DNA of 64,000 nt, taken from the NCBI GenBank assembly GCA_023406895.1, contig JAEXTV010000016.1:64663-128662 (forward strand), in the 5' to 3' direction. Shown here one piece after another: positions 3,946 through 57,413 of this stretch; position 1 is the first letter of the stretch; every line of letters starts with the position of its first letter. The notes beneath the pieces were generated by a model. That model had not been told where the DNA came from. It saw only the letters and a program-made list of their open reading frames with translations, and did not search any database. A program made the translations under genes and the position numbers. The stretch comes from Bacillota bacterium (GTDB lineage Bacteria; Bacillota; Clostridia; Christensenellales; SZUA-584).

Positions 3946-3973
3946 TATAATGAAAATGACAGCATTATTCTTT

Positions 3974-4090
3974 GGCTTACGTTGGGGCGTAAGCCATCCA
4001 CTGCGCAGTGGATTGCAATCCCGTGTTAAAATCGTTTTGCCATGGGATGCATTCGCCCGCTTGCTCCTCAGCATGACATGAGGAGGGGGT
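3974..4090. repeat. Composite intergenic palindromic repeat element
   Basis: Hairpins GGCTTACG..CGTAAGCC and ATCCACTGCGCAGTGGAT. The minus strand carries GTCATGCTGAGGAGCAAGCGGGCGAATGCATCCCATGG, matching the element at 44150. Confidence 0.6.
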
Positions 4091-4306
4091 TATCGGCACT
4101 CTGAAGTATACTTGTGTATACTCAAATAGGAGTCCTTTATTGCAGAAATACGATGGAGTCTTTTAGTGTCTGGCTTAAGACAGTCATGATGACTTTTGCC
4201 AATCTAAAAGGCTTGCGCGCGTTGTTCACCAAGCGGCAAGCCCATTATACTTCCTGTCGACGTATTTGTTCAGATTTTCAGTTCACATAATCATTCTCTT
4301 GTTATC

Positions 4307-6655
4307 CTACAGATGCCATATCTCCTGCGCATACTGCCTCACCGTCCTGTCAGACGAGAACTTTCCGGCCGACGCCACATTGGCAAGGCCCTTGCGCCCG
4401 AAGCTGAGCCTGTCCGCATAATCGCAGTTCACACGCAGCTTGGCTTCCACATACGGCATCAAATCGAGCAGCAGGAAGTAATGATCCGCCCGGTGCCAGC
4501 AGGCCCCCTCGAGTAACGCATCATACAGCTCCTTGAAGTAACCGAAACCGTCGTCGCTGAGTGTGCCGTCTATCAGCGTATCGAGCACGCGCTTCACCCT
4601 CGGGTTGCTCTCATAAATCGCTTTGGGGTTGTAGCTTGCGCTTTCGCGCCGGATGTCTTCCACGCGCGCCCCGAATATGTAGTTGTTGTCCTCACCGGCC
4701 TCTTCCACAATCTCCACGTTCGCGCCGTCGTACGTGCCAAGCGTGACCGCGCCGCTCAGCATCAGCTTCATGTTGCCTGTGCCGCTCGCCTCGGTGCCCG
4801 CGGTCGATATCTGCTCGGAAACATCCGCCGCCGGAATAATCGCCTCGGCATACGAGCAGTTGTAGTTCTGCACAAACACGACACGCAGCTTATCGTTCGT
4901 TTGCGGGTCTGTGTTGACGAGCCGCGCAATCTCATTGATCAGCTTGATAATCGCCTTGGCCCGAAAATATCCCGGGGCCGCCTTCGCGCCGAAAATAAAC
5001 ACCGTCGGATGAAAATCTTGAAGGCTGCCATCTTTGAGGCCGTAATAGATATCGAGTATCGACAGCGCGTTGAGCAGCTGGCGTTTGTATTCGTGCAGCC
5101 GCTTCACCTGCACATCGAATATGAATTCGGGCGGGATTTCCGTGTCCTCACGCTCGGCAATCAGCGCGGCGAGCTGCCGCTTTTTTTGCTGCTTCACGGC
5201 GTTAAAGCGATGCACAAAATCATCGTCTATGCTGTCTTTGAGCTTCCCAAGCTGACTTAAGTCAGTCAGAAAACCGCTGCCAATACGGCTTTCGATCAAC
5301 GCCGTGAGCTCCGGGTTGCAGAGCCCGAGCCAGCGCCGCTGCGTCACGCCGTTGGTCTTGTTCTGAAATTTATCCGGATACAGCTCATACCAGTTTTTAA
5401 ACACATCGTGCTTCAAAATCTCGGTATGCAGCCGGGCCACGCCGTTCACATACGTTGACATAAACACCGCGAGCCGCGCCATATGCACCGTGTCGCAGTC
5501 GATTATGCGCATGCTTCCCGTCTTTTCCGCAGGAACCCCCGCCTCACCGAGCACCGCGCAAAGCTTTTCGTCAATCCGCGTGATGATCGCTCTGATCTCC
5601 GGGATCACGGCGTCCATCAGCGCCACGTGCCATGTTTCGAGCGCCTCGCCCATCACGGTATGGTTCGTATACGAAAACGTCCGCTGCGCCATTGCAAATG
5701 CGTCGTCAAAACTGAATCCCTCAGCCATCAGCAGCCGCATCAGCTCGGGCACGCAGATCACCGGGTGCGTATCATTAAGCTGAATCGCGCAGTGCGCCGC
5801 GAATCCCGAAAGATCGCTGCCGTGTGTGCGCTTGTACCGCGCGATGATATCCTGCAGCGACGCACTCGCGAGAAAATACTGCTGCTTGAGGCGCAGCTTT
5901 TTGCCCGCGTCGTCACAGTCGTTCGGGTACAGCACGCGCGAGATATCCTCCGCGTCGTTCTTCTCCCGCACGGCCTGGGCGTAATCCTGATTGTTGAAAG
6001 CGGTAAAATCGAGTTCCTGCACCGCCTCGCTCTGCCACAGCCGCAGCGTGCCCACATGGCCGCTTTGGTAACCGATCACGGGCATGTCGTACGGCACCGC
6101 GCGAACGGTCTGATCCGCGAATGTCACCGTCACCGCCCTGTCGTCGCGGCGGCAGCTCCACGGGTCGCCGTCCGTCTGCCAATCGTCGGCGGTTTCGCAC
6201 TGCATGCCGTCGACAAACAGCTGTTTAAAAAGCCCGAACTTGTAGCGGATGCCGTAACCGTCGAGCGGCAGCGCCATCGTCGCCGCACTGTCTAAGAAAC
6301 ACGCCGCGAGACGGCCCAGCCCGCCGTTGCCGAGCGCCGCGTCCTCAATGTCTTCCAGTGCGGCTAAATCCGCGCCGCGCTCCCGCAGCTTTTCGCGCAC
6401 CTCACCCAGCACACCGAGGCAATAGAGGTTGTTAAACACCATCCGTCCGATTAAGAACTCAATAGAAAAATAATAGGCGCGCCGCGCCGTGCTATGTTTA
6501 TTTTTGCTGATGATCCAGTCGTCTGATATCAATGCCATCACGGCCTTCGAGAGCGCGTCGTGCAGCTGAGCCGCACTTGCGCTTTTCATATCCTTCTGGT
6601 AACTGCTTTTTAGGTTTTGTTCCGTCATGCGCAATATCTGGTTGCTGTCGGTCAT
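4307..6655 (-). CDS. glgP: Glycogen/maltodextrin phosphorylase
   Basis: 782 aa with the PLP-lysine motif EASGTGNMKLMLSGAVTLGTYDGANVE and a typical GT35 N-terminus. ATGA overlap with malQ. Confidence 0.95.
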   Translation of the reverse strand: MTDSNQILRMTEQNLKSSYQKDMKSASAAQLHDALSKAVMALISDDWIISKNKHSTARRAYYFSIEFLIGRMVFNNLYCLGVLGEVREKLRERGADLAALEDIEDAALGNGGLGRLAACFLDSAATMALPLDGYGIRYKFGLFKQLFVDGMQCETADDWQTDGDPWSCRRDDRAVTVTFADQTVRAVPYDMPVIGYQSGHVGTLRLWQSEAVQELDFTAFNNQDYAQAVREKNDAEDISRVLYPNDCDDAGKKLRLKQQYFLASASLQDIIARYKRTHGSDLSGFAAHCAIQLNDTHPVICVPELMRLLMAEGFSFDDAFAMAQRTFSYTNHTVMGEALETWHVALMDAVIPEIRAIITRIDEKLCAVLGEAGVPAEKTGSMRIIDCDTVHMARLAVFMSTYVNGVARLHTEILKHDVFKNWYELYPDKFQNKTNGVTQRRWLGLCNPELTALIESRIGSGFLTDLSQLGKLKDSIDDDFVHRFNAVKQQKKRQLAALIAEREDTEIPPEFIFDVQVKRLHEYKRQLLNALSILDIYYGLKDGSLQDFHPTVFIFGAKAAPGYFRAKAIIKLINEIARLVNTDPQTNDKLRVVFVQNYNCSYAEAIIPAADVSEQISTAGTEASGTGNMKLMLSGAVTLGTYDGANVEIVEEAGEDNNYIFGARVEDIRRESASYNPKAIYESNPRVKRVLDTLIDGTLSDDGFGYFKELYDALLEGACWHRADHYFLLLDLMPYVEAKLRVNCDYADRLSFGRKGLANVASAGKFSSDRTVRQYAQEIWHL

Positions 6656-8145
6656 TCAGTTGTGTCTCCTGTTCTATGATACGCTTTATTTATACTTAAA
6701 ATATCGTCCTTGAGAGTATCTGTCAACTGTTCAGGCCTTATGCGCCACTTCCAGTTGAGCCCCACCGTGCCCGGCGTGTTCATCCGCGCTTCGCTGCCCA
6801 GCCGTAAATGATCCTGCATGGGGATCACAACGGTATCGGCGCAGCTCGCGTAAGCCGCGCTGATCAGCGCTTTGCAGACGTCCGCGTCGTCATCCATATT
6901 GAGATACGCGCGCGCAAAGCTTTTTTCGGCTTCCCCGGCCTTCTGCCACCAGCCCGCTACAGTATCGTTATCATGCGTCCCCGTGTAAAGCACGGTATTG
7001 GAGCTGATATTGGCCGGCAAATGCATATTCTTCTCATCGGAATCAAAGCCGAACAACAGCACCTTCATACCCGGATAGCCGCAGACTTTGAGCAGCCGCT
7101 TCACCTTGGGCGTGACCACACCCAGATCCTCGGCGACAATACGCAGTGACGGGATTTCGCGGCTCAGCACCTGAAAGAAATAGCTGCCCGGCCCGTTTCT
7201 CCATGTGCCGATCTTCGCTGTGGGGGCATCCGCGGGAATCTCATAGTAATTCGCGAATCCGATAAAATGGTCCACACGCATGATATCGCAATAGTCGAAC
7301 ATCGCGCGCATACGGCGTACCCACCATTCGTACCCGGTTTTCTTATGCAGCGGCCAGTTGTAAATGGGGTTGCCCCACAGCTGGCCATCCTCGGTGAAAT
7401 AATCGGGCGGTACCCCCGCCACGCAGAGCGGCCGCCTTTGTTCATCAAGCAAAAACAGATGCGGCTCTGCCCACGTGTCGGCGGAATCCATCGCGACGTA
7501 TATCGGCATATCGCCAAAAATCAGCACACCGTTTTGATTCGCATAAGCTTTGAGCTTCGCCCACTGCCCGAAAAAAAGATACTGCACAAACGAATGAAAC
7601 GCGATATCCTCACTGAGCGCGCGAGCATATTTCGTCATTGCGTCGGGCTCGCGGAAACGGATCTCTTCGTCAGGCCATTCGCTCCAGGCCTTGCCGCCGA
7701 ATCGGTCTTTGAGCGCGGAGAAAAACGCGTAATCGAAAAGCCACGGCCTTTGTGCCGAAAACGCATCCACACGCGCCTTAAGCATCGGATAGGCATTCTT
7801 AAACGCAGCGCGAAGCACCGCATACCGCGTTAAATAGAGATATTCGTAATCCACAGCGTCCGCGTCTTTATCGGGATCGAGATGAGCGTAATCGGATTCC
7901 TTGAGTATGCCTTCTTCTTTGAGCATATCGAGGTCTATAAAATACGGGTTGCCTCCAAATGTGGAAAAGCTCTGGTAGGGCGAATCCCCATAGCTTGTCG
8001 GGCCGATCGGCAGCACCTGCCAGATTTTCGTCCCGGACTCCCGCAAAAAATCAACGAATTTGTAAGCCTCCCACCCCATAGTCCCTATTCCATACGGAGA
8101 GGGCAGGGACGATATGTGCATCAATATGCCGCTGCTGCGCTGCAT
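6652..8145 (-). CDS. malQ: 4-alpha-glucanotransferase (amylomaltase)
   Basis: 497 aa. The N-terminus MQRSSGILMHISSLPSPYGIGTMG and the segment VDHFIGF are typical of GH77. Confidence 0.95.
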   Translation of the reverse strand: MQRSSGILMHISSLPSPYGIGTMGWEAYKFVDFLRESGTKIWQVLPIGPTSYGDSPYQSFSTFGGNPYFIDLDMLKEEGILKESDYAHLDPDKDADAVDYEYLYLTRYAVLRAAFKNAYPMLKARVDAFSAQRPWLFDYAFFSALKDRFGGKAWSEWPDEEIRFREPDAMTKYARALSEDIAFHSFVQYLFFGQWAKLKAYANQNGVLIFGDMPIYVAMDSADTWAEPHLFLLDEQRRPLCVAGVPPDYFTEDGQLWGNPIYNWPLHKKTGYEWWVRRMRAMFDYCDIMRVDHFIGFANYYEIPADAPTAKIGTWRNGPGSYFFQVLSREIPSLRIVAEDLGVVTPKVKRLLKVCGYPGMKVLLFGFDSDEKNMHLPANISSNTVLYTGTHDNDTVAGWWQKAGEAEKSFARAYLNMDDDADVCKALISAAYASCADTVVIPMQDHLRLGSEARMNTPGTVGLNWKWRIRPEQLTDTLKDDILSINKAYHRTGDTTE

Positions 8146-8167
8146 ACATAACCTCCTGTTTGCTGGT

Positions 8168-8572
8168 CTATCCTTTCACCGCACCGGCGACGACACCTTT
8201 GATAATATACTTCTGACACGACAGGTAAACCACGATAATCGGAATAATCGCGAGTGTCAGCATGGCCATCATCGCGCCCATATCGATCGACCCATACCCG
8301 CCTTTGAGATATTGTATCACAATTGGTATCGTTCTGTGATCGCTCAATATCTACGGGTATGGATTTGACAAAACCGCTGAACATAAACGTGGAAAGGCCC
8401 GCACCAAACCCCAGATAAATCACAATGATACCAAAAGGATTGTCAAGATGCAGCATGTTGGCAAACTTGGACATCGTGAACATCACCATTTGGAACGGCA
8501 CGATCATTAACATGCTGCAAAAGCTGCGATACACATGAGAATGACAAGAAGGAGCGATAGGGTTTTCTTCAT
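8168..8572 (-). pseudogene. Deletion remnant of a sugar ABC importer (binding-protein signal peptide fused to fragments of a MalG-type permease)
   Basis: After the RBS AAAGAGGTGG there is a 21-codon ORF, MKKTLSLLLVILMCIAAFAAC, then a stop. In another frame comes a mid-permease segment, MLMIVPFQ..FGAGLSTFMFSGFVKSIP. After a further frame change comes the permease C-terminus, TIPIVIQYLKGGYGSIDMGAMMAMLTLAIIPIIVVYLSCQKYIIKGVVAGAVKG plus stop at 8168. The EAA-loop region is missing. Confidence 0.7.
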
Positions 8573-8633
8573 TGATTCCACCTCTTTCAAAGATTTGTTC
8601 TCATTGCACGGAGTGGCTCCGTACAAACTCATT

Positions 8634-9686
8634 TTAAGAATGGTTCTCACAAACGGAGTTTCCCTGCCGGAACTTTGTGCCGGGCACCACGTGGCGGTTT
8701 TCACCGCTGCCTTCAATCAGATTGATCAATATATCCGTACTTTCCTTGGCCATCACGTCTGCCGGCTGTTCGAGCGTTGTGAGCGTGGGGATGGTATAGT
8801 TTGAAAGCTCGAGCCCATCGATGGAAATCACCGAGCAGTCTTCCGGGACACGGATGTTATGATCGTTTAAAGCCTTGATAGCGGCCATCGCCATCACATC
8901 CGCTATGGTGAACACCGCCGAAAAGGGCTGCCCGCTTTCGATCAGCCGTTTTGTCCCTTCGTATGCATCCGGCATATTAAAGCTGTCGGCCAATATCACC
9001 AACGACATATCCAGCGGACATCCGCAATCCTCAAGCGCCTGTTTATAGCCGGAAAATCTTAGCTCACTGATGGACTTATCATCCGTGCTCGCCACGAGCG
9101 CCGCAATACGCCTGTGCCCGCTGTTATATAGCCGTGTCACCGCGTCGTAGGCTTCCTTCTTATCATCAATGGCCACAGACGAATACGATTTTGGGTCAAG
9201 ACTTCCAAAAGTATTGGTATATGTGCAGCACACATAAGGGATGCTCAAGAGATCCGTTTCTTCGGGCGAATAATTAAAGCGCCCTCCGAGGAAAAGAATT
9301 CCGCGAAGACGTTTTTCCTTGGTAATCATCGCCGCTGTTTTGATTTCATCGTCGCCGCTGCCAATTTGGTGCAGCACCATCGAATAACCTCTTTGGTATA
9401 TCTCGTGCTCCACACCTTTGATGATGCGCGTAAAAAATGGGTTGGAAACGCCGCGGACAATCAGCGCAATGGTATCCGAGCTCGTGCGCACAAGATTTCT
9501 CGCGCTGTTGTTGGGAATATAGCCGTTTGCCTGAATCACACTCATCACGCGCTTGCGCATGTCATCGCTGACGTCCTGATGATCGTTGAGCACGCGCGAG
9601 ACGGTGCTGACGCTGACATTGCATAGTCTGGCGATGTCTTTAATCGTTTGCTGCTTCAATGTGACACTCATCCTTTCGCGGGACAT
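8634..9686 (-). CDS. LacI-family transcriptional regulator
   Basis: N-terminal HTH (IKDIARLCNVSVSTVSRVLN) followed by a periplasmic-binding-protein-like sugar-binding core. Confidence 0.9.
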   Translation of the reverse strand: MSRERMSVTLKQQTIKDIARLCNVSVSTVSRVLNDHQDVSDDMRKRVMSVIQANGYIPNNSARNLVRTSSDTIALIVRGVSNPFFTRIIKGVEHEIYQRGYSMVLHQIGSGDDEIKTAAMITKEKRLRGILFLGGRFNYSPEETDLLSIPYVCCTYTNTFGSLDPKSYSSVAIDDKKEAYDAVTRLYNSGHRRIAALVASTDDKSISELRFSGYKQALEDCGCPLDMSLVILADSFNMPDAYEGTKRLIESGQPFSAVFTIADVMAMAAIKALNDHNIRVPEDCSVISIDGLELSNYTIPTLTTLEQPADVMAKESTDILINLIEGSGENRHVVPGTKFRQGNSVCENHS

Positions 9687-9702
9687 GTGGCCTAAATTAT
9701 TT

Positions 9703-9729
9703 CCGGTAACGTTATCGGAAACGTTTCCG
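9703..9729. promoter_or_regulatory. Two overlapping LacI/GalR-type operators
   Basis: CCGGTAACGTTATCGG (9703-9718, near-palindrome) and a perfect 14-bp palindrome CGGAAACGTTTCCG (9716-9729). Both are centred on AACGTT, just upstream of the LacI gene. Confidence 0.55.
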
Positions 9730-9966
9730 GTCCCGACAATGGTTATATTATTGCCAAGTCAGCGCAATGTCAATAGATCAACTCTCGTTGCTGCCAGCTG
9801 CGGATTCCTTGGAAGTTAGCGTTTTAATATAAATATGAAAAAAAGTGGTGATTTATTTTCATGAAATTGTTATAATATACATCAATAGTATCAGAGCATC
9901 GAAAACCTCAGCGGACATTCACTCATCACGGAATTTATAAAAGTATAACAGTCGGGAGTTCAACAA

Positions 9967-10872
9967 ATGCGAATTCTTATTGCCGATGACAGCCAAACAT
10001 GCCGCATGATTCTCTCCGGAGCATTAAAGGAATACGGTTACGACGTGCTCGAAACAGTTGATGGCATGCAGGCTTGGGGGGAACTCATTAAACCCAACGC
10101 ACCGTCTATTGCGATACTCGACTGGGTGATGCCCAAGCTCGACGGCTTGGAACTGATTCAAAAAGTCCGTGAGGCAAATTCTGAGCGGCCGCCCTATATC
10201 ATCATGCTCACCGGCAAAAGCGAAACAAAAGATATCATTTTGGGGCTCGATGCGGGTGCCAACGATTATTTGATTAAGCCGTTTGATCCGAACGAGCTGC
10301 GTGCGCGGGTTCAGGTGGGCCGGCGCATGATAGAATTGCAGGATGCGCTGATGAAAACAAACGAGAAGCTCAATTATCAGGCCACCCACGATCCGCTTAC
10401 TGGGCTGCTTAACCGCAGAGCCATATTTGATAAGCTCGGCGATTTGTTTTCGCAGACGGGTATCGGTGACACGGTGTTGTGTGCGGGCATTTTGGATATC
10501 GACCATTTTAAGCGTATCAACGATACTTACGGCCATCAGACCGGTGACGATATATTATGTAAATTGACGAGCATTCTCGAGGAGATCATAGGAGAATCGG
10601 ATTCTATCGGCCGCATCGGCGGAGAGGAGTACCTGATCATCACCACGGCCGCCTCCGAAGAAGAGATGAGTGCGCGGTTTGAAAGATACCGCCGCCAGAT
10701 TGCCGAAACCCGGCTGATGACCCGGTCAGGAGCGCTGTCTATTTCAGTCAGCATCGGTGTGGCCTGCAGCATGTACAAATCCACCGTCGACGAGCTGCTG
10801 GCCGCTGCGGATACCGCGCTGTATGAAGCGAAAAACCTAGGCCGCAACCGCGTCATCACACATAAGCTTTAG
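9967..10872 (+). CDS. Response-regulator receiver fused to a GGDEF diguanylate cyclase
   Basis: Receiver domain (MRILIADD, ILDWVMPKLDG) plus a GGDEF domain with active-site RIGGEEYLI. Confidence 0.9.
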   Translation: MRILIADDSQTCRMILSGALKEYGYDVLETVDGMQAWGELIKPNAPSIAILDWVMPKLDGLELIQKVREANSERPPYIIMLTGKSETKDIILGLDAGANDYLIKPFDPNELRARVQVGRRMIELQDALMKTNEKLNYQATHDPLTGLLNRRAIFDKLGDLFSQTGIGDTVLCAGILDIDHFKRINDTYGHQTGDDILCKLTSILEEIIGESDSIGRIGGEEYLIITTAASEEEMSARFERYRRQIAETRLMTRSGALSISVSIGVACSMYKSTVDELLAAADTALYEAKNLGRNRVITHKL

Positions 10873-11364: not shown

Positions 11365-12954
11365 TTAAACCGCGTCGCCTGTTTTCTTATGCCGCTTCGC
11401 CTGTGTGACCAGAATCGTCACAATCGCGCCGGCAAGCACAGCCGCCACAACGACCCACAGCCACGGGAAGGGCTGAGACCCGCTGTCGAACGTGCCCGGA
11501 ATGTCCTCATCGTTGCTGCTGACATTCTGTTTGTACTGGGCTGTCACAGTAATATCGCCGACGATCTTGCTGTAATCTTTATCCCAGCTTGTGAATGTGT
11601 ATCCGCTCCGCGCGGGATTCGCGGGTGCAACGGCAGCGCTGCCATGGTTCACCGACTGAGTGCTCAGCACCTTGCCGTCAAAATCCACAAACTTGACGGT
11701 GTACGTGTTGATCTTATACAGCGCCGTCACGGTCAGGTCGCCCGTGATTTTGCTATAGTCTTTGTCCCAGCCTGTAAACGTATAGCCGTCTCTCGCCGGA
11801 TTCGCAGGAGCTGTGGCTGCGCTGCCGTAGTTCACCGACTGCGCACCCAGCACTTTGCCGTCGAAATCCACAAACTTGACGGTATACGAGTTGATCGCCC
11901 ATTTTGCGTACAGCGTCACATCACTCAGCCCCACCGCATCATTATCGAAATCCCAGTCCTGAAGGAAGGTATCGTTGTCAAGATACCAGCCCTTAAAGCT
12001 GTAACCCGTTTTGGACGGATCCGCCGGTTTCACAACTTTTCCGGCATAAGGAATCGTCTGTGGTGCCACATCATTGCCTCCGTTGGAGACAAATTTGACA
12101 TTCACGATTTTTTCAGCCACCGTCAATGTGCCCGGATTAAACGCAATGTTATAATTGTCCGATGTAAGACCGCTCGGCGTAATCGGGTACGTCCCAACCG
12201 CCGACATCGCTGCATACGTGCAGTCAATGGCAAGCGTGCCACCGAGCACGGATTCACTCTCGCCTTCCACAAAGCCGCTGTATTGTACCGTGTACGTCGG
12301 TGCGGCATCTCCAAAGACAACCGATTTGTCATCGGCAGTGACCGTCAGCGCTTTTTTACCCACAGTCAGCGTTCCGTTTTTCACACACACCATATAGTTG
12401 AAGCATTTGGGGAAAACCGAACACTTATCGATCTCAATCGGATAGCTTCCCGGGCCTTTGCCTTTCTCATAGGTGCAGCTGAGTTTCGGCGTGCCGCCAA
12501 TCACACTTTCGTCATCCGAGCCCACAAATCCGCTGATCGAATAGGTCAGCGACGGCGCGTCCTCTCCGTATGTGGCTGTTTTGTCATCGGCAGTCACCGT
12601 AATTTTGGCAGGTGTTATACAGATCTGAACCATTTTTTCGGCGAGAAGCTTGTTGCCTTTCCAAACCTGCACAAAGACGTTATGGAAACAGACGTCTTTA
12701 AACTGCGGAGCCGGAGTTGGACATCCGTCCGTCAAATATAAAACCGTGTCTCCGGGCTTAGTTCCCGATACTTGAACACCATGCCAATCGCCGTCATAGA
12801 CGCCGCTGTAACCCGATATCTCAATCTTTTGGGGGGGCATGCCCGGTCCGCCCATCGTTTCAGCCATATCGTCGCTGGCCAAAGCCGGAGACGTAAACAG
12901 GCAACTGAGCATCAGCATCACAGCAATGGCAACAACAAATCTTTTCTTTTTCAT
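11365..12954 (-). CDS. Cell-surface repeat protein (signal peptide, MBG-like repeats, Listeria-Bacteroides/Flg_new repeats, C-terminal TM anchor)
   Basis: Signal peptide MKKKRFVVAIAVMLMLSCLFTSPALA. Two segments of the type TATYGEDAPSLTYSISGFVG..GTLTV. Three G(Y)(S/T)F(K/T)GW repeats. C-terminal TM WLWVVVAAVLAGAIVTILV followed by KRHKK. Confidence 0.75.
   Translation of the reverse strand: MKKKRFVVAIAVMLMLSCLFTSPALASDDMAETMGGPGMPPQKIEISGYSGVYDGDWHGVQVSGTKPGDTVLYLTDGCPTPAPQFKDVCFHNVFVQVWKGNKLLAEKMVQICITPAKITVTADDKTATYGEDAPSLTYSISGFVGSDDESVIGGTPKLSCTYEKGKGPGSYPIEIDKCSVFPKCFNYMVCVKNGTLTVGKKALTVTADDKSVVFGDAAPTYTVQYSGFVEGESESVLGGTLAIDCTYAAMSAVGTYPITPSGLTSDNYNIAFNPGTLTVAEKIVNVKFVSNGGNDVAPQTIPYAGKVVKPADPSKTGYSFKGWYLDNDTFLQDWDFDNDAVGLSDVTLYAKWAINSYTVKFVDFDGKVLGAQSVNYGSAATAPANPARDGYTFTGWDKDYSKITGDLTVTALYKINTYTVKFVDFDGKVLSTQSVNHGSAAVAPANPARSGYTFTSWDKDYSKIVGDITVTAQYKQNVSSNDEDIPGTFDSGSQPFPWLWVVVAAVLAGAIVTILVTQAKRHKKTGDAV
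11530..11895 (-). repeat. Two tandem 183-bp (61 aa) near-identical coding repeats
   Basis: INSYTVKFVDFDGKVLGAQSVNYGSAATAPANPARDGYTFTGWDKDYSKITGDLTVTALYK is followed directly by INTYTVKFVDFDGKVLSTQSVNHGSAAVAPANPARSGYTFTSWDKDYSKIVGDITVTAQYK. Confidence 0.85.
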
Positions 12955-48144: not shown

Positions 48145-49893
48145 TTAAAACCCCTGCGTTTTGAGTATAAACTGCACCGCCGCGTTGTTGCGCGCATCCA
48201 TGAACGAGGTATACTTTTCGGCCATCTGCGAAAGCTTATCGAGATACGCTTCCATGCCGTCAATGTTGTCTTTGAGCGGCCGCAGGCCTTCCTCATCCAT
48301 TTCCGATATCCCGCCTTTGAGCTGTGCCATGCCGCTGATCAGTTCATCGAGCGCGCCCAACAGTTTGGGCAGCTGCGCTTTTGCGTCTGCCATTCCCGCC
48401 GCAATATCGTCCGCGCCGCCCGCAAGCCGAGCCGCGCCGCCGCTGAGCGCCGTGCAGGCTGCCTGCAGCTTATAAGCACCGTCCAGCAGCTGCAAACAGG
48501 AGGCGTAAAGCGTTGCGCTGCCGCCGCGCAGCTGATTCACACTGTCTGTGAAAACTCCCGAGAAGCCTGTGTAAAGCTGCTGCATACCCGTATTGAGCAG
48601 GGCTGAATTGTCTTTCAAATCCGATGCCGAGCTCACGAGTGCGTTGATGACGTCCTGCTGCGCGCTGAGTCCCGCCGCAATCGGCGCGGCAGCGGGGTCT
48701 GTTCCAGCCAGGGCGGCTGCATTTGAAGCCAATGTGCTGTTGGAGGTTGAGAGGCCGCCGAGAACCGTGCCGATACCGCCCACACCGGCATCCACACCCG
48801 CCGCGAGATTCTTCAAATCCGATATTTTTTTGGTCATCTCTGTCACCGACGCTTGCAGTTCACCTGCGCCCGTGTCGAAAGCCGCGAACGACGCAGCAAA
48901 GGCCGACATCCCCGCGTAAAAATCGTCCGCCGCGCTTTTTAGCGCTTTGGTATTGGCATTCAGCGAATCCATGCCGTTCTCAAGCGACGACGCGCCGGAT
49001 GCAAGGCCATTCATGCCGCTTTGCATATCCTTTACGGCGCTCCTCATTTGCTTGAGGCCACTCAGCAGCGCGTCCGCGCCCGACTGCATATCGTCCGCAC
49101 CCGCGAGCAGATCGTCCGCTCCATCCGTCAGGCCGTCAATGTCGATCACGTCGCCAAAGCTATCGAGCCCCGGCAACGCCTTAGGGAGCACGATGATGCT
49201 GATTGGCTCCAGCGTCATATTGGTGCCGAATAGTGTGAACGAAAACGTGCTTTCGGGCAGCGGAAACGCCGAATATGCCACCGTATAATCAGAACCCGCG
49301 AGCACCGTCGAAGCGGTATCCGGAATCTCGCGAACGGTATACATGCTGCTGGCGAGTGACAGCGACACTTGCACCGCGAACGGTGTCATAATCTCACGGT
49401 CCGTGAGGTCATCCATTTCGCCCGTGCCCGAGTTATTCCTCACGGTCATTTCAATTTTCAGCTCTCCCGTCCGCCCCGAAATCTCCTCCGGCTGTATTTT
49501 TTCGCCGTTCAGATAATAGGCGATAGCAAAGCTTACGGGCAAAGCTTTTTGTGTTTCGCCCTGATAATAGAAACCGTCCTCTCCGGCAAGCCCAGCGGGC
49601 CATGTGATCTTTTCGCCGTCTACAACTGGCGTATCCGCGCCGGTGAGATTTTTCACCTGTGTGTATGTGCCGTAATCAACGATCTCTCCGTCTGCAAAAA
49701 AGCGGTTGACCACGGTCGCGCCTGCGTAGCTGCCGTCATTGGCAAGCACGGCGTACACCGTTTCGCTCTTGGGTTTTTCGCCCTCCATTCGGGCTGGTGC
49801 AGCGCCCGAAAAACCGGCGGCAAACACGGCCGCCGCCGTGATGAGCGCGCCCACACGCAGTGCCTTATGTGTGGATAGGGTTAACCGTTTCAT
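48145..49893 (-). CDS. Exported YhgE/Pip-type heptad-repeat (xxxLxxG) protein
   Basis: I moved the start to MKRLTLSTHKALRVGALITAAAVFAAGFSG (signal/anchor). The long central region has LxxG heptads (LLAGADDMQSGADALLSGLKQMRSAVKDMQSGMNGLASGASSLENGMDSL...). It starts 4 nt after the MMPL stop. Confidence 0.6.
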   Translation of the reverse strand: MKRLTLSTHKALRVGALITAAAVFAAGFSGAAPARMEGEKPKSETVYAVLANDGSYAGATVVNRFFADGEIVDYGTYTQVKNLTGADTPVVDGEKITWPAGLAGEDGFYYQGETQKALPVSFAIAYYLNGEKIQPEEISGRTGELKIEMTVRNNSGTGEMDDLTDREIMTPFAVQVSLSLASSMYTVREIPDTASTVLAGSDYTVAYSAFPLPESTFSFTLFGTNMTLEPISIIVLPKALPGLDSFGDVIDIDGLTDGADDLLAGADDMQSGADALLSGLKQMRSAVKDMQSGMNGLASGASSLENGMDSLNANTKALKSAADDFYAGMSAFAASFAAFDTGAGELQASVTEMTKKISDLKNLAAGVDAGVGGIGTVLGGLSTSNSTLASNAAALAGTDPAAAPIAAGLSAQQDVINALVSSASDLKDNSALLNTGMQQLYTGFSGVFTDSVNQLRGGSATLYASCLQLLDGAYKLQAACTALSGGAARLAGGADDIAAGMADAKAQLPKLLGALDELISGMAQLKGGISEMDEEGLRPLKDNIDGMEAYLDKLSQMAEKYTSFMDARNNAAVQFILKTQGF

Positions 49894-49897
49894 ATCA

Positions 49898-51976
49898 TCA
49901 TCCCCTGTTCTTCTTTTTCCGCAAAGAAAGCGTTGTGGCCCGAAGAGGCTTGTCGAACAATATAAACAACGCGGGCAGCGCAAACATGATCACCACAAAG
50001 CTGATCAGCGCACCGCGCCCGACCACCGATGCGATCTCTCTCGTCGCCTTGATCGAGCTGATCGTCGTGATGGAGAGCGTCGCAAAATAGAATGTGAGCA
50101 CGCTGGTCAGCATCGGCTTGGTGGCCGTCGCAATGGCCTGCCTGATCGCCGTCTTCGGGTCGTCTGTCCTGCGTCTGAACTCAATGTAGCGTGACGTAAA
50201 CAATATTGCGTAGTCCACTGTCGCGCCGAGCTGTATCGAGTTCACAAGCACAGGCGTTAAAAATATCATGTCTTCGCCGAAATAAAAATCCCAGCCCACA
50301 TTGATATAGATTGCGGCTTTAATCACTGCCACGAGGAAAACGGGAATCAGCAGCGAGCGGAAAGCGATCATAATGATAATAAAGATGAACACCATTGAAA
50401 TCACATCCACGGTCAGGTTGTCGGTATCCGCCGTGGAGGCCATATCCGCCGCGCTCGCGTAGGATCCCGTCACATAGCTGTCTTCACCAAAGTACTCTTT
50501 GGCGGCGGCACGCACATCGCCGATGGCGGCAAACAGCGTGTCGTTGTCCATGCCGGGCTTCATCGTCACGGTAAACCGGCGGTATGTTTCGCCCACATAC
50601 GCGTCTTTGAGCACATCCGGAATAAACGCCTCCGGCACCATCGCCGCTGCGCTGTCCGAATACGCGGCAACATCGCGCACGCTGGGAAGCGCCTTGATCG
50701 TTTGCACCGCCGCCGGCTCCGCATCCGCCAATGCCTTACCGTACAGCACATGCACGGTATCCGTGATGCCGAAGGTGTCGCTGATTTTTTCCGACGCGAC
50801 GATGGGTTTTGTGTTTTCCGGCATAAATCTATCTGAAGTATAATAATATTGCTGATTCGCGCTGCCGATGATACCCGGTATTAACGCAGCCGCCACCACG
50901 GCCAGCAGCACAAATCGGTATTTGATGAGCGGGCCGGAGAGCTTTTTGAGTGACGGCATCAGCACGCGGTGCTTGCGTTTGCCGAGCGGGTATGTGGCAA
51001 GGATCGCGCAGGGCAGAAACGTTAAGCTGATCACAAGGCTGAAAACCACGCCCTTACATAGCACGATGCCGATGTCCGCGCCGATCAGGTTCTGCATGAA
51101 CATCAGCGCGATAAACCCGGCGCAGTCGGTCAGCGCGCTGGAGGAAATGGCGGTCAGTGTCGTACGCATAGAGGAAACCATCGCCGCATTCACGTCGCCG
51201 TTGACCGTTTTCAAGTCTTCTTCAAAGCGGTGTATCAGAAATATCGAAAAGTCCATGGAGATAGCGAGCTGCAATACCGCCGCAATCGCCACAGTCAGGA
51301 ACGACACCTGATCCCGCAACAGAAAGTTTGTGCCGTAATTGAGCACAATCGCGATGCCGATATTAACAATGCATAGCAGCGGCGCGATATACGACGACAG
51401 CGAGATCGCGAGTATGCCGATCAGTATGGCCCCCGCGATGGCGAGATAAAGGCCTTGCTCACGCTGCAATGTCTGCCGGAGTTCACTTAATACCACAGGC
51501 TGCCCGCCAAAATACTCGCCGTCTTCCATCATCGCCGAAATCTCACTCACAGCGGATTCGGAAAAGTCGCTTTGATCCGCGCCCTCAAATGAAACGATGA
51601 GCAGCGTGGCATCACCCTTTTTAAACTGCGCAAGCACATCGCCGGACAAAAAATCCTCGGGCTGGTAGATATCGAGCATATCGTCCATCCACGACACGGT
51701 TTTAACGCCGTCAATGGTTTCGATGCGCTGCTTTAATTGTTTTGCCTGCCAGTTTTCTTTGCCCTCAATAAGAATATACCCTTGCGCGGAGGAGGAAAAT
51801 TCTCTGTTCTCTATGGCGCTGCCCGTAACGGAATTCGCCCCTGCGGGCATAAAGGCGGACATTTCAAAGCTCGTTTTCACAAGCGGAATGCCGAGCAGAG
51901 AAGCCCCGCAGCAAAAAATTAAGAAAATAATGACCAAAACCTTATGACGAACCAAAAACCTAAAGAGTTTATTCAT
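49898..51976 (-). CDS. MMPL/RND-superfamily membrane transporter
   Basis: I moved the start to MNKLFRFLVRHK, which follows GGTGG. Two 6-TM bundles separated by extracytoplasmic domains. Confidence 0.8.
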   Translation of the reverse strand: MNKLFRFLVRHKVLVIIFLIFCCGASLLGIPLVKTSFEMSAFMPAGANSVTGSAIENREFSSSAQGYILIEGKENWQAKQLKQRIETIDGVKTVSWMDDMLDIYQPEDFLSGDVLAQFKKGDATLLIVSFEGADQSDFSESAVSEISAMMEDGEYFGGQPVVLSELRQTLQREQGLYLAIAGAILIGILAISLSSYIAPLLCIVNIGIAIVLNYGTNFLLRDQVSFLTVAIAAVLQLAISMDFSIFLIHRFEEDLKTVNGDVNAAMVSSMRTTLTAISSSALTDCAGFIALMFMQNLIGADIGIVLCKGVVFSLVISLTFLPCAILATYPLGKRKHRVLMPSLKKLSGPLIKYRFVLLAVVAAALIPGIIGSANQQYYYTSDRFMPENTKPIVASEKISDTFGITDTVHVLYGKALADAEPAAVQTIKALPSVRDVAAYSDSAAAMVPEAFIPDVLKDAYVGETYRRFTVTMKPGMDNDTLFAAIGDVRAAAKEYFGEDSYVTGSYASAADMASTADTDNLTVDVISMVFIFIIIMIAFRSLLIPVFLVAVIKAAIYINVGWDFYFGEDMIFLTPVLVNSIQLGATVDYAILFTSRYIEFRRRTDDPKTAIRQAIATATKPMLTSVLTFYFATLSITTISSIKATREIASVVGRGALISFVVIMFALPALFILFDKPLRATTLSLRKKKNRG

Positions 51977-52269
51977 AGAATTACCACCCGATATTTGGTT
52001 GCACAAATTATACCAAATCTCACGCATCCACTCAAAGCCGACGTTATACGCTGTCTATTCAAATATATTCATAAACTCACAAATATTCGGCCAAAGTGCA
52101 CAGCGGCTGTGAAATCCCGTGATTATCCGCTGTTTTTCATAGGTTCAGGGTTTGCCGTGACGGATAAAATTTTCATCTCAGGGCAGGAAGGGTGTATAGC
52201 GACACCGAATATTGAATATACTCCCATAATCAGACGAATATCGTCAAAGGAGACTGTAAGGAGGATCGC

Positions 52270-54033: not shown

Positions 54034-54831
54034 ATGAAAACACGAAAGAAGACCGTTTGGCTGACGCTTGTCCTCAGTTTGCTGCTCGCACTCACAGCCT
54101 GCACGCCCATCACATCGGAGGAATCGGATGGCACCGCGGCGGACGACGGTACGGCGACCGAAACCGCGCCCCCAAAGCTTGTGATGGCCACCGATCCCAC
54201 TTTCCCGCCTTATGAATACAACGGCGATCAGGGCATTGCAGGCATCGATATTGATATTGCCAATAAAATTGCCGCCAAGCTCGGCCTTGAGCTCGAAATC
54301 AAAACAATCCCCTTTAACGATATCGTCGCCGCCGTTCAGAATAAGCAGGTTGATATCGGCATGGCGGCACTCACCGCCGATGAAACAAGGCTTGCGGCCG
54401 TCGATTTTACGTCGCCGTACGCCACAGGCAAACAGGTGATTATTGTCAACAAGGATTCGGACATCACCGCGCCTGCCGGGCTGGCCGGAAAAAGAATCGG
54501 CGTTCAGCAAAACACAGCGGGCAGCACCTACTGCACCGAAGAGTTCGGCACAGCGGCGGTGCAAAGCTTCGGCACAGGCGCAGATGCCCTTCAGGCGCTG
54601 CTGCAGGGCAGCGTGGATGCCGTTGTGATTGACGACGGCCCGGCCAAGGTGCTGGCACAGACGAGTCAATCCGTTGTGATTCTTGATACAGAATATAAGC
54701 TGGATAAGTATGCAATAGCAGTGAATAAAGACAGCTCCTCACTGCTTAAAAAAATCAATTCGGCATTGGCCGAGCTCAAAGCTTCGGGCGAGATTCAGAG
54801 CATTATTGATAGCTATATTAAGGCCGAATAA
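54034..54831 (+). CDS. Amino-acid ABC transporter substrate-binding lipoprotein (copy 1)
   Basis: Lipobox (LALTAC), an acidic linker and a type-3 SBP core (FPPYEY, DIGMAALT, DFTSPYATGKQVIIV). Confidence 0.88.
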   Translation: MKTRKKTVWLTLVLSLLLALTACTPITSEESDGTAADDGTATETAPPKLVMATDPTFPPYEYNGDQGIAGIDIDIANKIAAKLGLELEIKTIPFNDIVAAVQNKQVDIGMAALTADETRLAAVDFTSPYATGKQVIIVNKDSDITAPAGLAGKRIGVQQNTAGSTYCTEEFGTAAVQSFGTGADALQALLQGSVDAVVIDDGPAKVLAQTSQSVVILDTEYKLDKYAIAVNKDSSSLLKKINSALAELKASGEIQSIIDSYIKAE

Positions 54832-54999
54832 ACACGGATTCATCGCGATCTCATTAATGTTTGCTGTGCCAAAGCCCAACGCATGAAAATTTGATTTGTG
54901 CGGGGCTTTATATTTTTGAATAAAAAATGAATATGGGTTGAAAATATTCTATAAATATAATATACTATTCATAAATTTTTAAAACTGGGGGACCAATAA

Positions 55000-55854
55000 A
55001 TGAAAGTGTTGAAAACAATCGCCTCTCTGGCTGTTGTATTGTGCATGATGTTTGCATTTGCCGCTTGCGCGCCGCAGGCTTCAAATGAACCGTCAGAATC
55101 GCCGAGCGAATCCGCTGCTTCTGTGGCAAGCGAAGAACCGAGTGAATCCGCTTCTGCAAGCGAAGAAGCGTCCGCGCCTGCGGAAAACGTCCTGACAATG
55201 GGTACCAACGCGGCTTTCCCGCCGTATGAGTACACCGAAGGCGACAAAATCGTGGGTATCGATGCCGAAATCGCCGCGCTGATCGCTGAGAAGCTCGGTA
55301 TGACGCTGAAGATCGAGGATATGGAGTTTGATTCGGTTATTCCCTCTGTCCAGAGCGGTAAGGTCGATATGGGTATGGCCGGCTTAACCGTCACCGATGA
55401 GCGCAAACAAGCGGTAGATTTCACCTCTTCTTACGCAACAGGCAAACAGGTCATCATCGTCGCCGAGGGTTCCAAGATCGCAACTGCGAAAGACCTTGAA
55501 GGCAAAACCATCGGCGTGCAGCTTTCCACCACGGGCGATCTCTATATCACATGGGATCTCGTTGACGAAGGACTGGCTCAGATTGAACGCTACAACAAGG
55601 GTGCCGATGCGGTGCAGGCGCTGGTACAGGGCAAGATCGACGCGGTCGTTATCGATAACGAACCCGCCAAGGTGTTTGTGGAGCAGGCTAAGGGCCTCAA
55701 GATTCTCGAAACCGAATATGTGCTCGAAGACTACGCGATTGCAGTTGCTAAGAACAACACGGAATTGCTTGATAAAATCAATACCGCGCTCGAAGAACTC
55801 ATTGCTTCGGGTGATGTTCAGAAGATTTTGGATAAATACATCAAGGCCGAATAA
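55000..55854 (+). CDS. Amino-acid ABC transporter substrate-binding lipoprotein (copy 2, paralog)
   Basis: Lipobox (FAFAAC), a Ser/Glu-rich linker and the same core motifs (FPPYEY, DMGMAGLT, DFTSSYATGKQVIIV). Confidence 0.88.
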   Translation: MKVLKTIASLAVVLCMMFAFAACAPQASNEPSESPSESAASVASEEPSESASASEEASAPAENVLTMGTNAAFPPYEYTEGDKIVGIDAEIAALIAEKLGMTLKIEDMEFDSVIPSVQSGKVDMGMAGLTVTDERKQAVDFTSSYATGKQVIIVAEGSKIATAKDLEGKTIGVQLSTTGDLYITWDLVDEGLAQIERYNKGADAVQALVQGKIDAVVIDNEPAKVFVEQAKGLKILETEYVLEDYAIAVAKNNTELLDKINTALEELIASGDVQKILDKYIKAE

Positions 55855-55915
55855 ACCTTGACAAAGCACTCATCCGCTGTTACCTTTGAAAGGGCAGAAC
55901 GGATACGATAACAGC

Positions 55916-55946
55916 AAGGCTGCCTGGTGACGGGCAGCCTTTTTTA
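55916..55946 (+). terminator. Intra-operon terminator/attenuator between the SBP and permease genes
   Basis: AAGGCTGCC-tggtgacg-GGCAGCCTT followed by TTTTA. Confidence 0.75.
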
Positions 55947-55978
55947 CATTATAAATCCCGTTAAAGGAGGGAATTCAT

Positions 55979-56683
55979 ATGGCTGAGTGGTGGCAAGAAT
56001 TGGTCAACATGTTTACACTCGCCTTCATCGATCATAATCGCTGGTTGTCCCTGTTGAAGGGCCTTGGCAACACGCTGCTTATCACTTTTTTTGCCGTCAT
56101 TATCGGCATTGTGATCGGCTTTATCGTCTCGATCATCCGTACCACACACGATAAAACCGGCAAACTCAAAATTGGCAACGCCATCTGTCAGGTCTATCTC
56201 ACTGTGATCCGCGGTACGCCGGTGATGGTGCAGATCATGATATTCTACTTCGTGATTTTCGCCGCCGCTCCCACCGAGTTTAAGATTCCGATCGCCATAC
56301 TCTCATTCGGTATCAACTCGGGCGCATATGTGGCGGAAATATTCCGCAGCGGTATCAACTCAATTGATTCGGGACAGTTTGAAGCGGGACGGAGCCTTGG
56401 CTTTAACTATACACAAACCATGTGGCACATCGTGATGCCGCAGGCTTTTAAAAATGTCATTCCGGCGCTCGCCAACGAGTTCATCGTGCTGCTCAAGGAA
56501 ACCTCGGTTGCGGGTTATATTGCCGTGGAAGACCTGACACGCAGCGGCTTCACAATCGGCGGAGCGATTTACAACTATACGCTGCCGCTGATCGCTATCG
56601 CTCTGATTTATCTGCTGCTGGTTATCCTGCTCTCATGGGGAGTTCGCAAGCTGGAAAGGAGGCTGAGACGCAGTGACCGATAA
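55979..56683 (+). CDS. Amino-acid ABC transporter permease (HisM/GlnP type)
   Basis: EAA-loop region ([24 protein letters not shown]) and 5 TM segments. Confidence 0.9.
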
Positions 56684-57413
56684 CGACGTATTGATCCGCA
56701 CGCAGGGTCTGGAAAAGCATTACGGCCCCATCAAAGCATTGGACGGTATTGACGCCGAGATTCATAAGGGCGATGTCGCGGTGGTCATCGGGCCTTCCGG
56801 TTCGGGTAAATCCACATTTCTGCGGTGTCTGAACCTACTTGAAGACCCGACAGGCGGCCATGTTTACTTTGAAGGCATCGACATCACCGATCCCAAGGTG
56901 GATATCAACATCCACCGTCAAAAGATGGGCATGGTGTTTCAGCAGTTCAATCTGTTTCCGCATATGAGCGTGCTCAAAAACATGACGCTCGCACCCGTCA
57001 AGCTGCTTAATCTGTCTCAGCAGGAGGCTGACGAACGCGCGATGAATCTGCTGCAGCGCGTGGGGCTTTCCGACAGAGCCAAAGCCTATCCGGCGCAGCT
57101 TTCGGGCGGCCAAAAACAACGCATCGCCATCGTGCGCGCGCTGTGCATGAACCCCGACGTGATGCTGTTTGACGAACCCACCTCCGCACTCGATCCGGAA
57201 ATGGTCGGCGAGGTGCTCGACGTGATGAAATCGCTCGCGCAGGGCGGCATGACTATGGTCGTCGTCACGCACGAAATGGGCTTTGCGCGCGAGGTTGGCA
57301 CCCGCGCAATATTCATGGACGAAGGAAAAATCGTGGAAGAAAACAAGCCGAGCGAGCTTTTTGAAAACCCGCGAAGCGAGCGGCTCCAAAGCTTTCTTGC
57401 CAAGGTACTCTGA
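56673..57413 (+). CDS. Amino-acid ABC transporter ATP-binding protein (GlnQ type)
   Basis: [24 protein letters not shown] and [13 protein letters not shown]. Confidence 0.93.

Follow-up and report, generated by a model that had tools for sequence, protein, structure and literature searches.

The CUT1 maltodextrin importers (TC 3.A.1.1) include MalEFGK2 of E. coli and MdxEFG of B. subtilis, in which a binding protein (SBP) is combined with MalF- and MalG-like permeases that carry EAA loops; the EAA loop is the part of the permease that docks the ATPase. In many Firmicutes a shared ATPase of the MsmK type is used, and the intact form of the importer described here would need one. Loss of genes at the level of strains is also familiar: the structural-variant survey of gut metagenomes by Zeevi et al. 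in 2019 reportedly describes strain-level deletion variants. The mal regulon of S. pneumoniae comprises MalR, MalXCD, MalM and MalP, and its MalR operators have been footprinted (CGCAAACGTTTKSG; PMC4451989).

We analyzed a 64 kb (64,000-nt) stretch of DNA, herein the window, in which a LacI-family regulator gene, a short scar (8572..8168), malQ and glgP follow one another on the minus strand (Table 1). With a probability of about 0.9, the 405-nt scar is a non-functional remnant of a CUT1-family, maltodextrin-type importer operon that was deleted recently in one sub-lineage.

Table 1. Coordinates of the genes, remnants, junctions and candidate regulatory elements of the locus
Feature	Position in window	Strand	Evidence or content
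Sigma-70-like promoter TTGACA-17-TAATAT upstream of lacI	9745..9773	-	10/12 match; hexamers conserved in L005, L032 and L004
Two abutting 14-bp LacI/MalR-type candidate operators	9704..9729	-	CGGAAACGTTTCCG (perfect palindrome) and CGATAACGTTACCG
LacI-family regulator gene	8634..9686	-	Pfam PF00356 LacI, PF00532 and PF13377 (Peripla_BP_1/3); intact
Hairpin UUGUACGGAG-CCA-CUCCGUGCAA between lacI stop and SBP RBS	8604..8626	-	10-bp stem; kept part of the old intergenic region
Remnant A: RBS, signal peptide and TAA	8507..8585	-	21 codons, equal to the first 21 of the intact 470-aa SBP of L084
Junction 1 (2900-bp deletion)	8507..8509	-	SBP codon 22 joined to permease-2 codon ~122; permease 1 wholly lost
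Remnant B: 55 codons of permease 2, residues ~123-177	8343..8507	-	99.4% DNA identity to L084 5490..5654
Junction 2 (149-bp deletion)	8343..8344	-	Permease-2 codons 178-226 (EAALIDG...LLLD) and 2 nt lost
Remnant C: last 58 codons of permease 2 and TAG	8168..8344	-	phmmer and blastn homology to intact loci
malQ, 4-alpha-glucanotransferase (GH77)	6652..8145	-	Pfam PF02446, E 2.7e-178, full length; intact
glgP-type alpha-glucan phosphorylase	4307..6655	-	Pfam PF00343, E 1e-285; intact

The interval between lacI and malQ

The preliminary description of this DNA took the regulator, malQ and glgP to be intact, and this is borne out: all three are full length with complete Pfam matches. The lacI product has 350 aa when read from the ATG at 9686 and 341 aa in public gene calls, which start at the TTG at 9659; Pfam assigns it an HTH and a periplasmic-binding-protein-like effector domain, and the protein is 98% identical to the allele of strains with an intact operon. 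malQ carries its own RBS (AGGAGG, 8157..8152), and glgP overlaps the malQ stop by 4 nt.

Three remnants of an importer had been proposed to lie between lacI and malQ, and all three were located there. Three-frame reading of 8720..8100 confirmed a lipoprotein signal peptide of 21 codons that stops at the lipobox Cys: the RBS (AGAGGTGG, 8585..8578) precedes an ATG at 8572, and the codons (MKKTLSLLLVILMCIAAFAAC) lead to Cys21 at 8512..8510 and a TAA at 8509..8507. Remnant B (MIVPFQMVMFTMSKFANMLHLDNPFGIIVIYLGFGAGLSTFMFSGFVKSIPVDIE) is out of frame with remnant A, as expected of the MalG-type permease piece in another frame that had been described, and has 55 codons rather than the ~60 claimed. Remnant C (SDHRTIPIVIQYLKGGYGSIDMGAMMAMLTLAIIPIIVVYLSCQKYIIKGVVAGAVKG, 8344..8171; TAG at 8170..8168) is indeed the C-terminal end of the permease, 22 nt before the malQ ATG at 8145, and counts 58 codons; the third frame attributed to it must be withdrawn, as it shares the frame of the signal peptide. 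The third reading frame at the locus is used by malQ and by none of the remnants. Similarly, the statement that the EAA loop and everything upstream of it are gone holds for the EAA segment, which is absent, but not for the upstream part, as remnant B lies directly upstream of the EAA motif and survives.

The homology of the remnants to permease 2 is, on sequence comparison, far beyond chance. A phmmer search of all ORFs of the window with the intact permease 2 of a sister metagenome-assembled genome (MAG) matched the two fragments at E = 2.7e-33 and 6.6e-33. Compared by blastn with three sister loci, the interval aligned in three colinear blocks (E 1e-144 to 1e-59); these span the end of lacI to SBP codon 21, permease-2 codons ~122-177, and permease-2 codon 227 to malQ. 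When fragments B and C were fused and searched against a set of 5.8 billion proteins, relatives up to ~90% identical over the retained residues were found, mostly N-terminally truncated gene calls. One permease-2 homologue from ENA (P0108, 161 aa) has an internal gap of ~25 residues right after its EAA motif, between EEAAMID and LNAMWIW, which could reflect either an assembly error or independent pseudogene formation.

A functional subunit of the importer cannot be made from the sequence that remains in the scar. The SBP, which in the intact allele has 470 aa and matches PF01547/PF13416, is reduced to 21 codons; permease 1 is absent; and permease 2 is left without codons 1 to ~122 and 178-226, the latter including EAALIDG. 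The permease fragments score 13 bits with the Pfam BPD_transp_1 model, against a cutoff of 26.4.

Intact relatives and the two deletions

Alignment with orthologous lacI..malQ loci, a check suggested in the preliminary description, revealed an intact SBP-permease-permease block at the same place in relatives. A MalQ scan of species-representative genomes yielded three sister MAGs, all labelled 'Bacillota bacterium' (L005, L032 and L004, with MalQ 92%, 87% and 85% identical, respectively), and each has the order lacI, a 470-477-aa ORF, a 281-aa ORF, a 284-aa ORF, malQ and glgP. Closer relatives (L084-L088), reached through a 90%-identity MalQ cluster, have the order lacI-SBP(470 aa)-permease(281)-permease(284)-malQ-glgP in flanking DNA that is 96-98% identical to the window. 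Their MalQ alleles fall into three groups: P0121 (98% aa, 11 contigs), with an intact SBP and two BPD_transp_1 permeases in every place shown, and P0242 (97% aa, 4 contigs including GCA_023415675.1) and P0243 (97% aa, 3 contigs), each with an intact importer in every place shown. These three groups have diverged from the window by 2-4% in DNA; aligned with them, the interval of the window falls into three colinear pieces with gaps of 2900 bp and 149 bp between them.

On these alignments, the importer is polymorphic (present or absent) among strains that belong to one species or stand at its edge, and the scar is the derived state. The short interval, which should recur in relatives if it were not a product of decay, occurs only in contigs with the window's own MalQ allele. 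The opposite polarity, in which a short interval is ancestral and the relatives gained the transporter by insertion, is virtually untenable: the interval holds out-of-frame pieces of the relatives' own genes, every outgroup is intact (three sister species and three allele groups), and SBP-P1-P2-malQ linkage is widespread in Bacillota.

The intact permeases are BPD_transp_1 proteins of the CUT1 type. The intact SBP, a lipoprotein of 470 aa, contains a low-complexity linker, and its closest solved relative (PDB 9xor, E 3.7e-34) was deposited as 'maltose-binding protein'. The block of SBP, P1 and P2 directly upstream of malQ recurs in ~20 loci of Lachnospiraceae, Oscillospiraceae, Acutalibacteraceae and actinobacteria. 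From the PDB relative and the linkage to malQ we infer, with good reason, a substrate class that we call maltodextrin-type; against this, the automatic JGI names of the homologues are of the raffinose/stachyose/melibiose (msm-type) kind.

Other differences between strains were observed in the same DNA. L084 carries a RES-domain gene (PF08808; L084:9889-10833, minus strand) inserted between glgP and a DUF362 gene, where the window has the gap 4296..3956; the gene is absent from the window, L087 and L088, which makes it a second structural difference between strains, lying a few kb away from the scar. In L090, a contig with the intact operon, FabF- and FabA-like genes (L090:406-2087) lie upstream of a GGDEF response-regulator gene; the window and the other strains have in their place the gene of a 529-aa MBG_2/Flg_new surface protein. 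In the window this gene (11365..12954, minus strand) encodes a secreted repeat protein with a C-terminal membrane anchor, MBG_2 and Flg_new being assigned in the public gene call, and a long spurious ORF of 450 aa runs antisense to it.

Measured against L084, the closest intact allele, the scar sub-lineage has lost 3049 bp in two deletions. The first removed L084 2589..5488 (window 8509 equals L084 2588, and window 8507 equals L084 5490), which comprises the SBP from codon 22, the SBP-P1 spacer, permease 1 and permease-2 codons 1 to ~122. The sequence at junction 1 is GCATGTT/(A)ATGATCG, and the TAA arises from the junction itself (TGT T/AA TGA); because the stop after Cys21 was created in this way, its position exactly at the lipobox Cys is a coincidence and not design. 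The second deletion removed L084 5655..5803, that is, EAALIDGCSPIRTYFKVVFPILRPTAITVAILNTMWIWNDYLLPYLLLD plus 2 nt, and shows a 2-nt AG microhomology. An origin of junction 1 by microhomology was also considered, as its endpoints share an imperfect 8/11 similarity, yet the product expected from it differs from the junction observed.

The flanks of both junctions contain no repeats, IS elements, or mobile element or site-specific signatures. Microhomology of at most 0-2 nt together with the lack of a repeat or mobile element points to illegitimate recombination or replication slippage as the route of deletion. An allele with only one of the deletions was not found among 26 contigs; the junctions would be compatible with either two separate events or one complex event.

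Eight public contigs encode a MalQ protein identical to that of the window. Three of these (L001, L002 and L003), from different samples, display lacI, a 488-nt gap and then malQ, and the other five were grouped as having the same neighbors as the three displayed. When the interval of these three contigs is aligned with that of the window, the junctions are identical and three SNPs are the only differences; identity to the window is 100% over 18 kb for L001, 99.2% for L002 and 98.9% for L003. The contig names (k141_ contigs and LEMO22-1 scaffolds) suggest that at least two assembly pipelines were used.

Misassembly is very unlikely, based on the concordance of independent assemblies. The preliminary description had itself named a collapsed assembly as the finding that would overturn it. 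In such a case the importer genes would be present in the organism but collapsed or left out by the assembler. Mis-joins are possible in metagenome assemblies, and the scar and intact alleles occur in the same sample series, hence strain mixtures exist. Set against this, the same junctions recur in 8 contigs from different samples and, to judge from their names, at least two pipelines; the junctions share no repeat able to cause a collapse; and there are two distinct breakpoints with a 165-nt island kept between them. We therefore regard an artifact as highly improbable.

Judged by its substitutions, the loss of the importer is recent. Read in their original frame, the remnants show 20 synonymous and 3 non-synonymous changes relative to L005; comparison with L032 and L004 gives similar ratios, which equal those between intact orthologues. 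As the differences are almost all synonymous, the remnants have spent nearly their whole history as working genes, which dates the deletion as recent. Remnant B differs from L084 at 1/165 nt. The scar has since been inherited by strains ~1% diverged in DNA (0.8-1.1% between L002/L003 and the window). In L002 and L003, lacI (1026 nt) and malQ (1494 nt) show 0 differences from the window, and the only differences in the whole lacI-to-malQ stretch are three derived SNPs clustered in remnant B (window 8503..8465; L002:9450-10050, L003:3365-3965). Two of the three are non-synonymous in the old frame; the counts are small, and the pattern in these three SNPs is suggestive of drift.

Among scar strains, glgP has 15.5 synonymous vs 3.5 non-synonymous differences (pN/pS ~0.07), by which measure it is still under purifying selection, and the MalQ protein is identical in all 8 scar-bearing contigs. 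Relative to intact-operon strains and L005, LacI of the scar lineage carries the derived substitutions R269I and L326P (numbered from the TTG at 9659), without disruption of the protein; in R269I all three bases of the codon differ (CGG to ATC).

Probable expression of the scar allele and the fate of uptake

The promoter upstream of lacI (Table 1) likely serves the whole lacI..glgP unit. The candidate operator CGGAAACGTTTCCG follows the -10 hexamer at a distance of 15 nt and has a central CG; GGAAACGTTTCC and GTAACGTTAC of the candidate operators are conserved in the sister loci, and their architecture matches that of the S. pneumoniae MalR operator (PMC4451989). The distance from lacI to the SBP start is only ~60 nt, and no conserved promoter was found there or nearer malQ; weak promoter-like hexamers (9/12 matches) occur within the scar at 8340..8311, 8260..8232 and 8229..8202. 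From the lack of a conserved nearer promoter, the tiny gaps between genes (22 nt or overlaps) and the RBS that malQ has of its own, we infer a single transcript. In the intact allele this would be an autoregulated lacI-(SBP-P1-P2)-malQ-glgP message made from the promoter and double operator; in the scar allele it would consist of lacI, ~490 nt of junk and malQ-glgP. As malQ keeps its AGGAGG, both malQ and glgP would remain expressed and under the control of the repressor.

Across four lineages the hairpin downstream of lacI keeps its stem but differs in the length and sequence of its loop. Over the next 33 nt, up to the ATG (8603..8573), conservation among the four lineages is 100%, compared with only 85-92% identity in the coding flanks. 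A role in processing or stability, or as a partial terminator, is conceivable for the hairpin; no known RNA family was matched when 8000..10000 was scanned with Rfam. An exact scan of JGI metagenome contigs with the conserved 33-nt 5'UTR gave 0 matches, the lineage being represented in ENA, Logan and NCBI assemblies.

In cells with the scar, MalQ and GlgP would act on internal alpha-glucans (glycogen turnover) or on maltodextrins imported by another system. That another transporter elsewhere in the genome had taken over uptake, making this copy dispensable before it was deleted, is possible, and we hold it only tentatively, as somewhat less probable than its contrary. The retention of malQ, glgP and the repressor, with glgP under purifying selection, is compatible with continued use of imported maltodextrin, but glycogen turnover explains the retention of malQ-glgP equally well. 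The window has neither a second CUT1 permease nor a sugar PTS; phmmer and the Pfam annotation of 30 further ORFs identified no other CUT1 permease or sugar importer in the 64 kb, and the annotated ORFs include a polar amino-acid ABC importer (54034..57413), two ABC exporter genes, an MMPL protein and a GH30 enzyme. Relocation is not apparent, as every occurrence of the intact SBP protein in public contigs lies in the lacI..malQ context.

Two of the annotated regions have features of their own. The polar amino-acid importer, on the plus strand, is composed of two tandem SBP_bac_3 genes, one permease and one ATPase. Directly downstream of the MMPL-family gene (49898..52027), and overlapping it by ~85 nt, is a 612-aa ORF without a Pfam match (48145..49983, minus strand).

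With its RBS and ATG intact, the 21-codon ORF of remnant A is probably translated. Junction 1 also made a TAATG stop/start overlap (8509..8505), which could permit re-initiation into a 129-codon chimeric ORF (8507..8121, minus strand) consisting of 55 permease codons and an out-of-frame tail that ends 24 nt inside malQ. Both ORFs would be by-products of the junction, the 21-codon ORF an accidental one. These same elements, along with the persistence of the scar across strains ~1% diverged, could be taken to mean that the remnant has acquired a function, with the 21-aa signal-peptide ORF giving a small peptide that is secreted or sits in the membrane, or with the ORF from the TAATG tuning malQ translation. 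We consider this improbable: junction 1 itself gave rise to both the stop codon and the overlap, the SNPs in remnant B of L002 and L003 beside an unchanged lacI and malQ look like drift, and no relative independently conserves such an ORF.

Enterococcal pheromones are cut from lipoprotein signal peptides, and by analogy the scar transcript might yield a free 21-residue signal peptide and/or a 129-codon two-helix chimera with a selected role; such a role could be that of a membrane-active or signaling peptide, or of a translational coupler for malQ. This proposal is a shade less probable again, and a non-functional remnant of the importer operon is the reading that we prefer.

Comparison with known systems

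The scar is a real but ordinary, recent strain-level loss of a sugar-uptake module; the kind is well known and the instance is new. It reveals no new mechanism or new kind of system. Its value lies in showing, at base-pair resolution, how a carbohydrate importer was lost within a species of an uncultured Bacillota lineage of the gut type. Public metagenomes of the same sample series contain both alleles, which makes the locus usable as a natural marker, and as a natural knock-out, when asking whether the niche of this organism depends on maltodextrin uptake. It also indicates that malQ-glgP can stay under selection without an adjacent importer.

Set beside MalEFGK2 and MdxEFG, the fragments in the window belong to the permease in the MalG position. 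The importer of the intact relatives differs from these systems: besides the 470-aa lipoprotein SBP with its low-complexity linker, its NCBIfam matches to MalE, MalF and MalG are all sub-threshold (those to MalE and MalG far below the cutoff, and the match to GlcU is better), and there is no ATPase gene (MalK/MsmK) at the locus in either the scar or the intact allele.

With the mal regulon of S. pneumoniae (PMC4451989) the intact relatives share all four functional parts: a LacI-family repressor, a CUT1 importer made up of a lipoprotein SBP and two permeases, a GH77 enzyme and an alpha-glucan phosphorylase. The candidate operator found here (CGGAAACGTTTCCG) belongs to the same 14-bp type as that of S. 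pneumoniae (CGCAAACGTTTKSG). The S. pneumoniae genes form divergent operons, whereas here they are colinear, apparently with one promoter upstream of the repressor gene, and in the window the importer has been deleted. Compared with the deletion variants of gut bacteria, nothing is fundamentally different: in both, carbohydrate transport is lost on the scale of kilobases, the loss is polymorphic within a species, and short out-of-frame remnants are left behind, and at the present locus both breakpoints, and the island that survives between them, are placed to the base pair.
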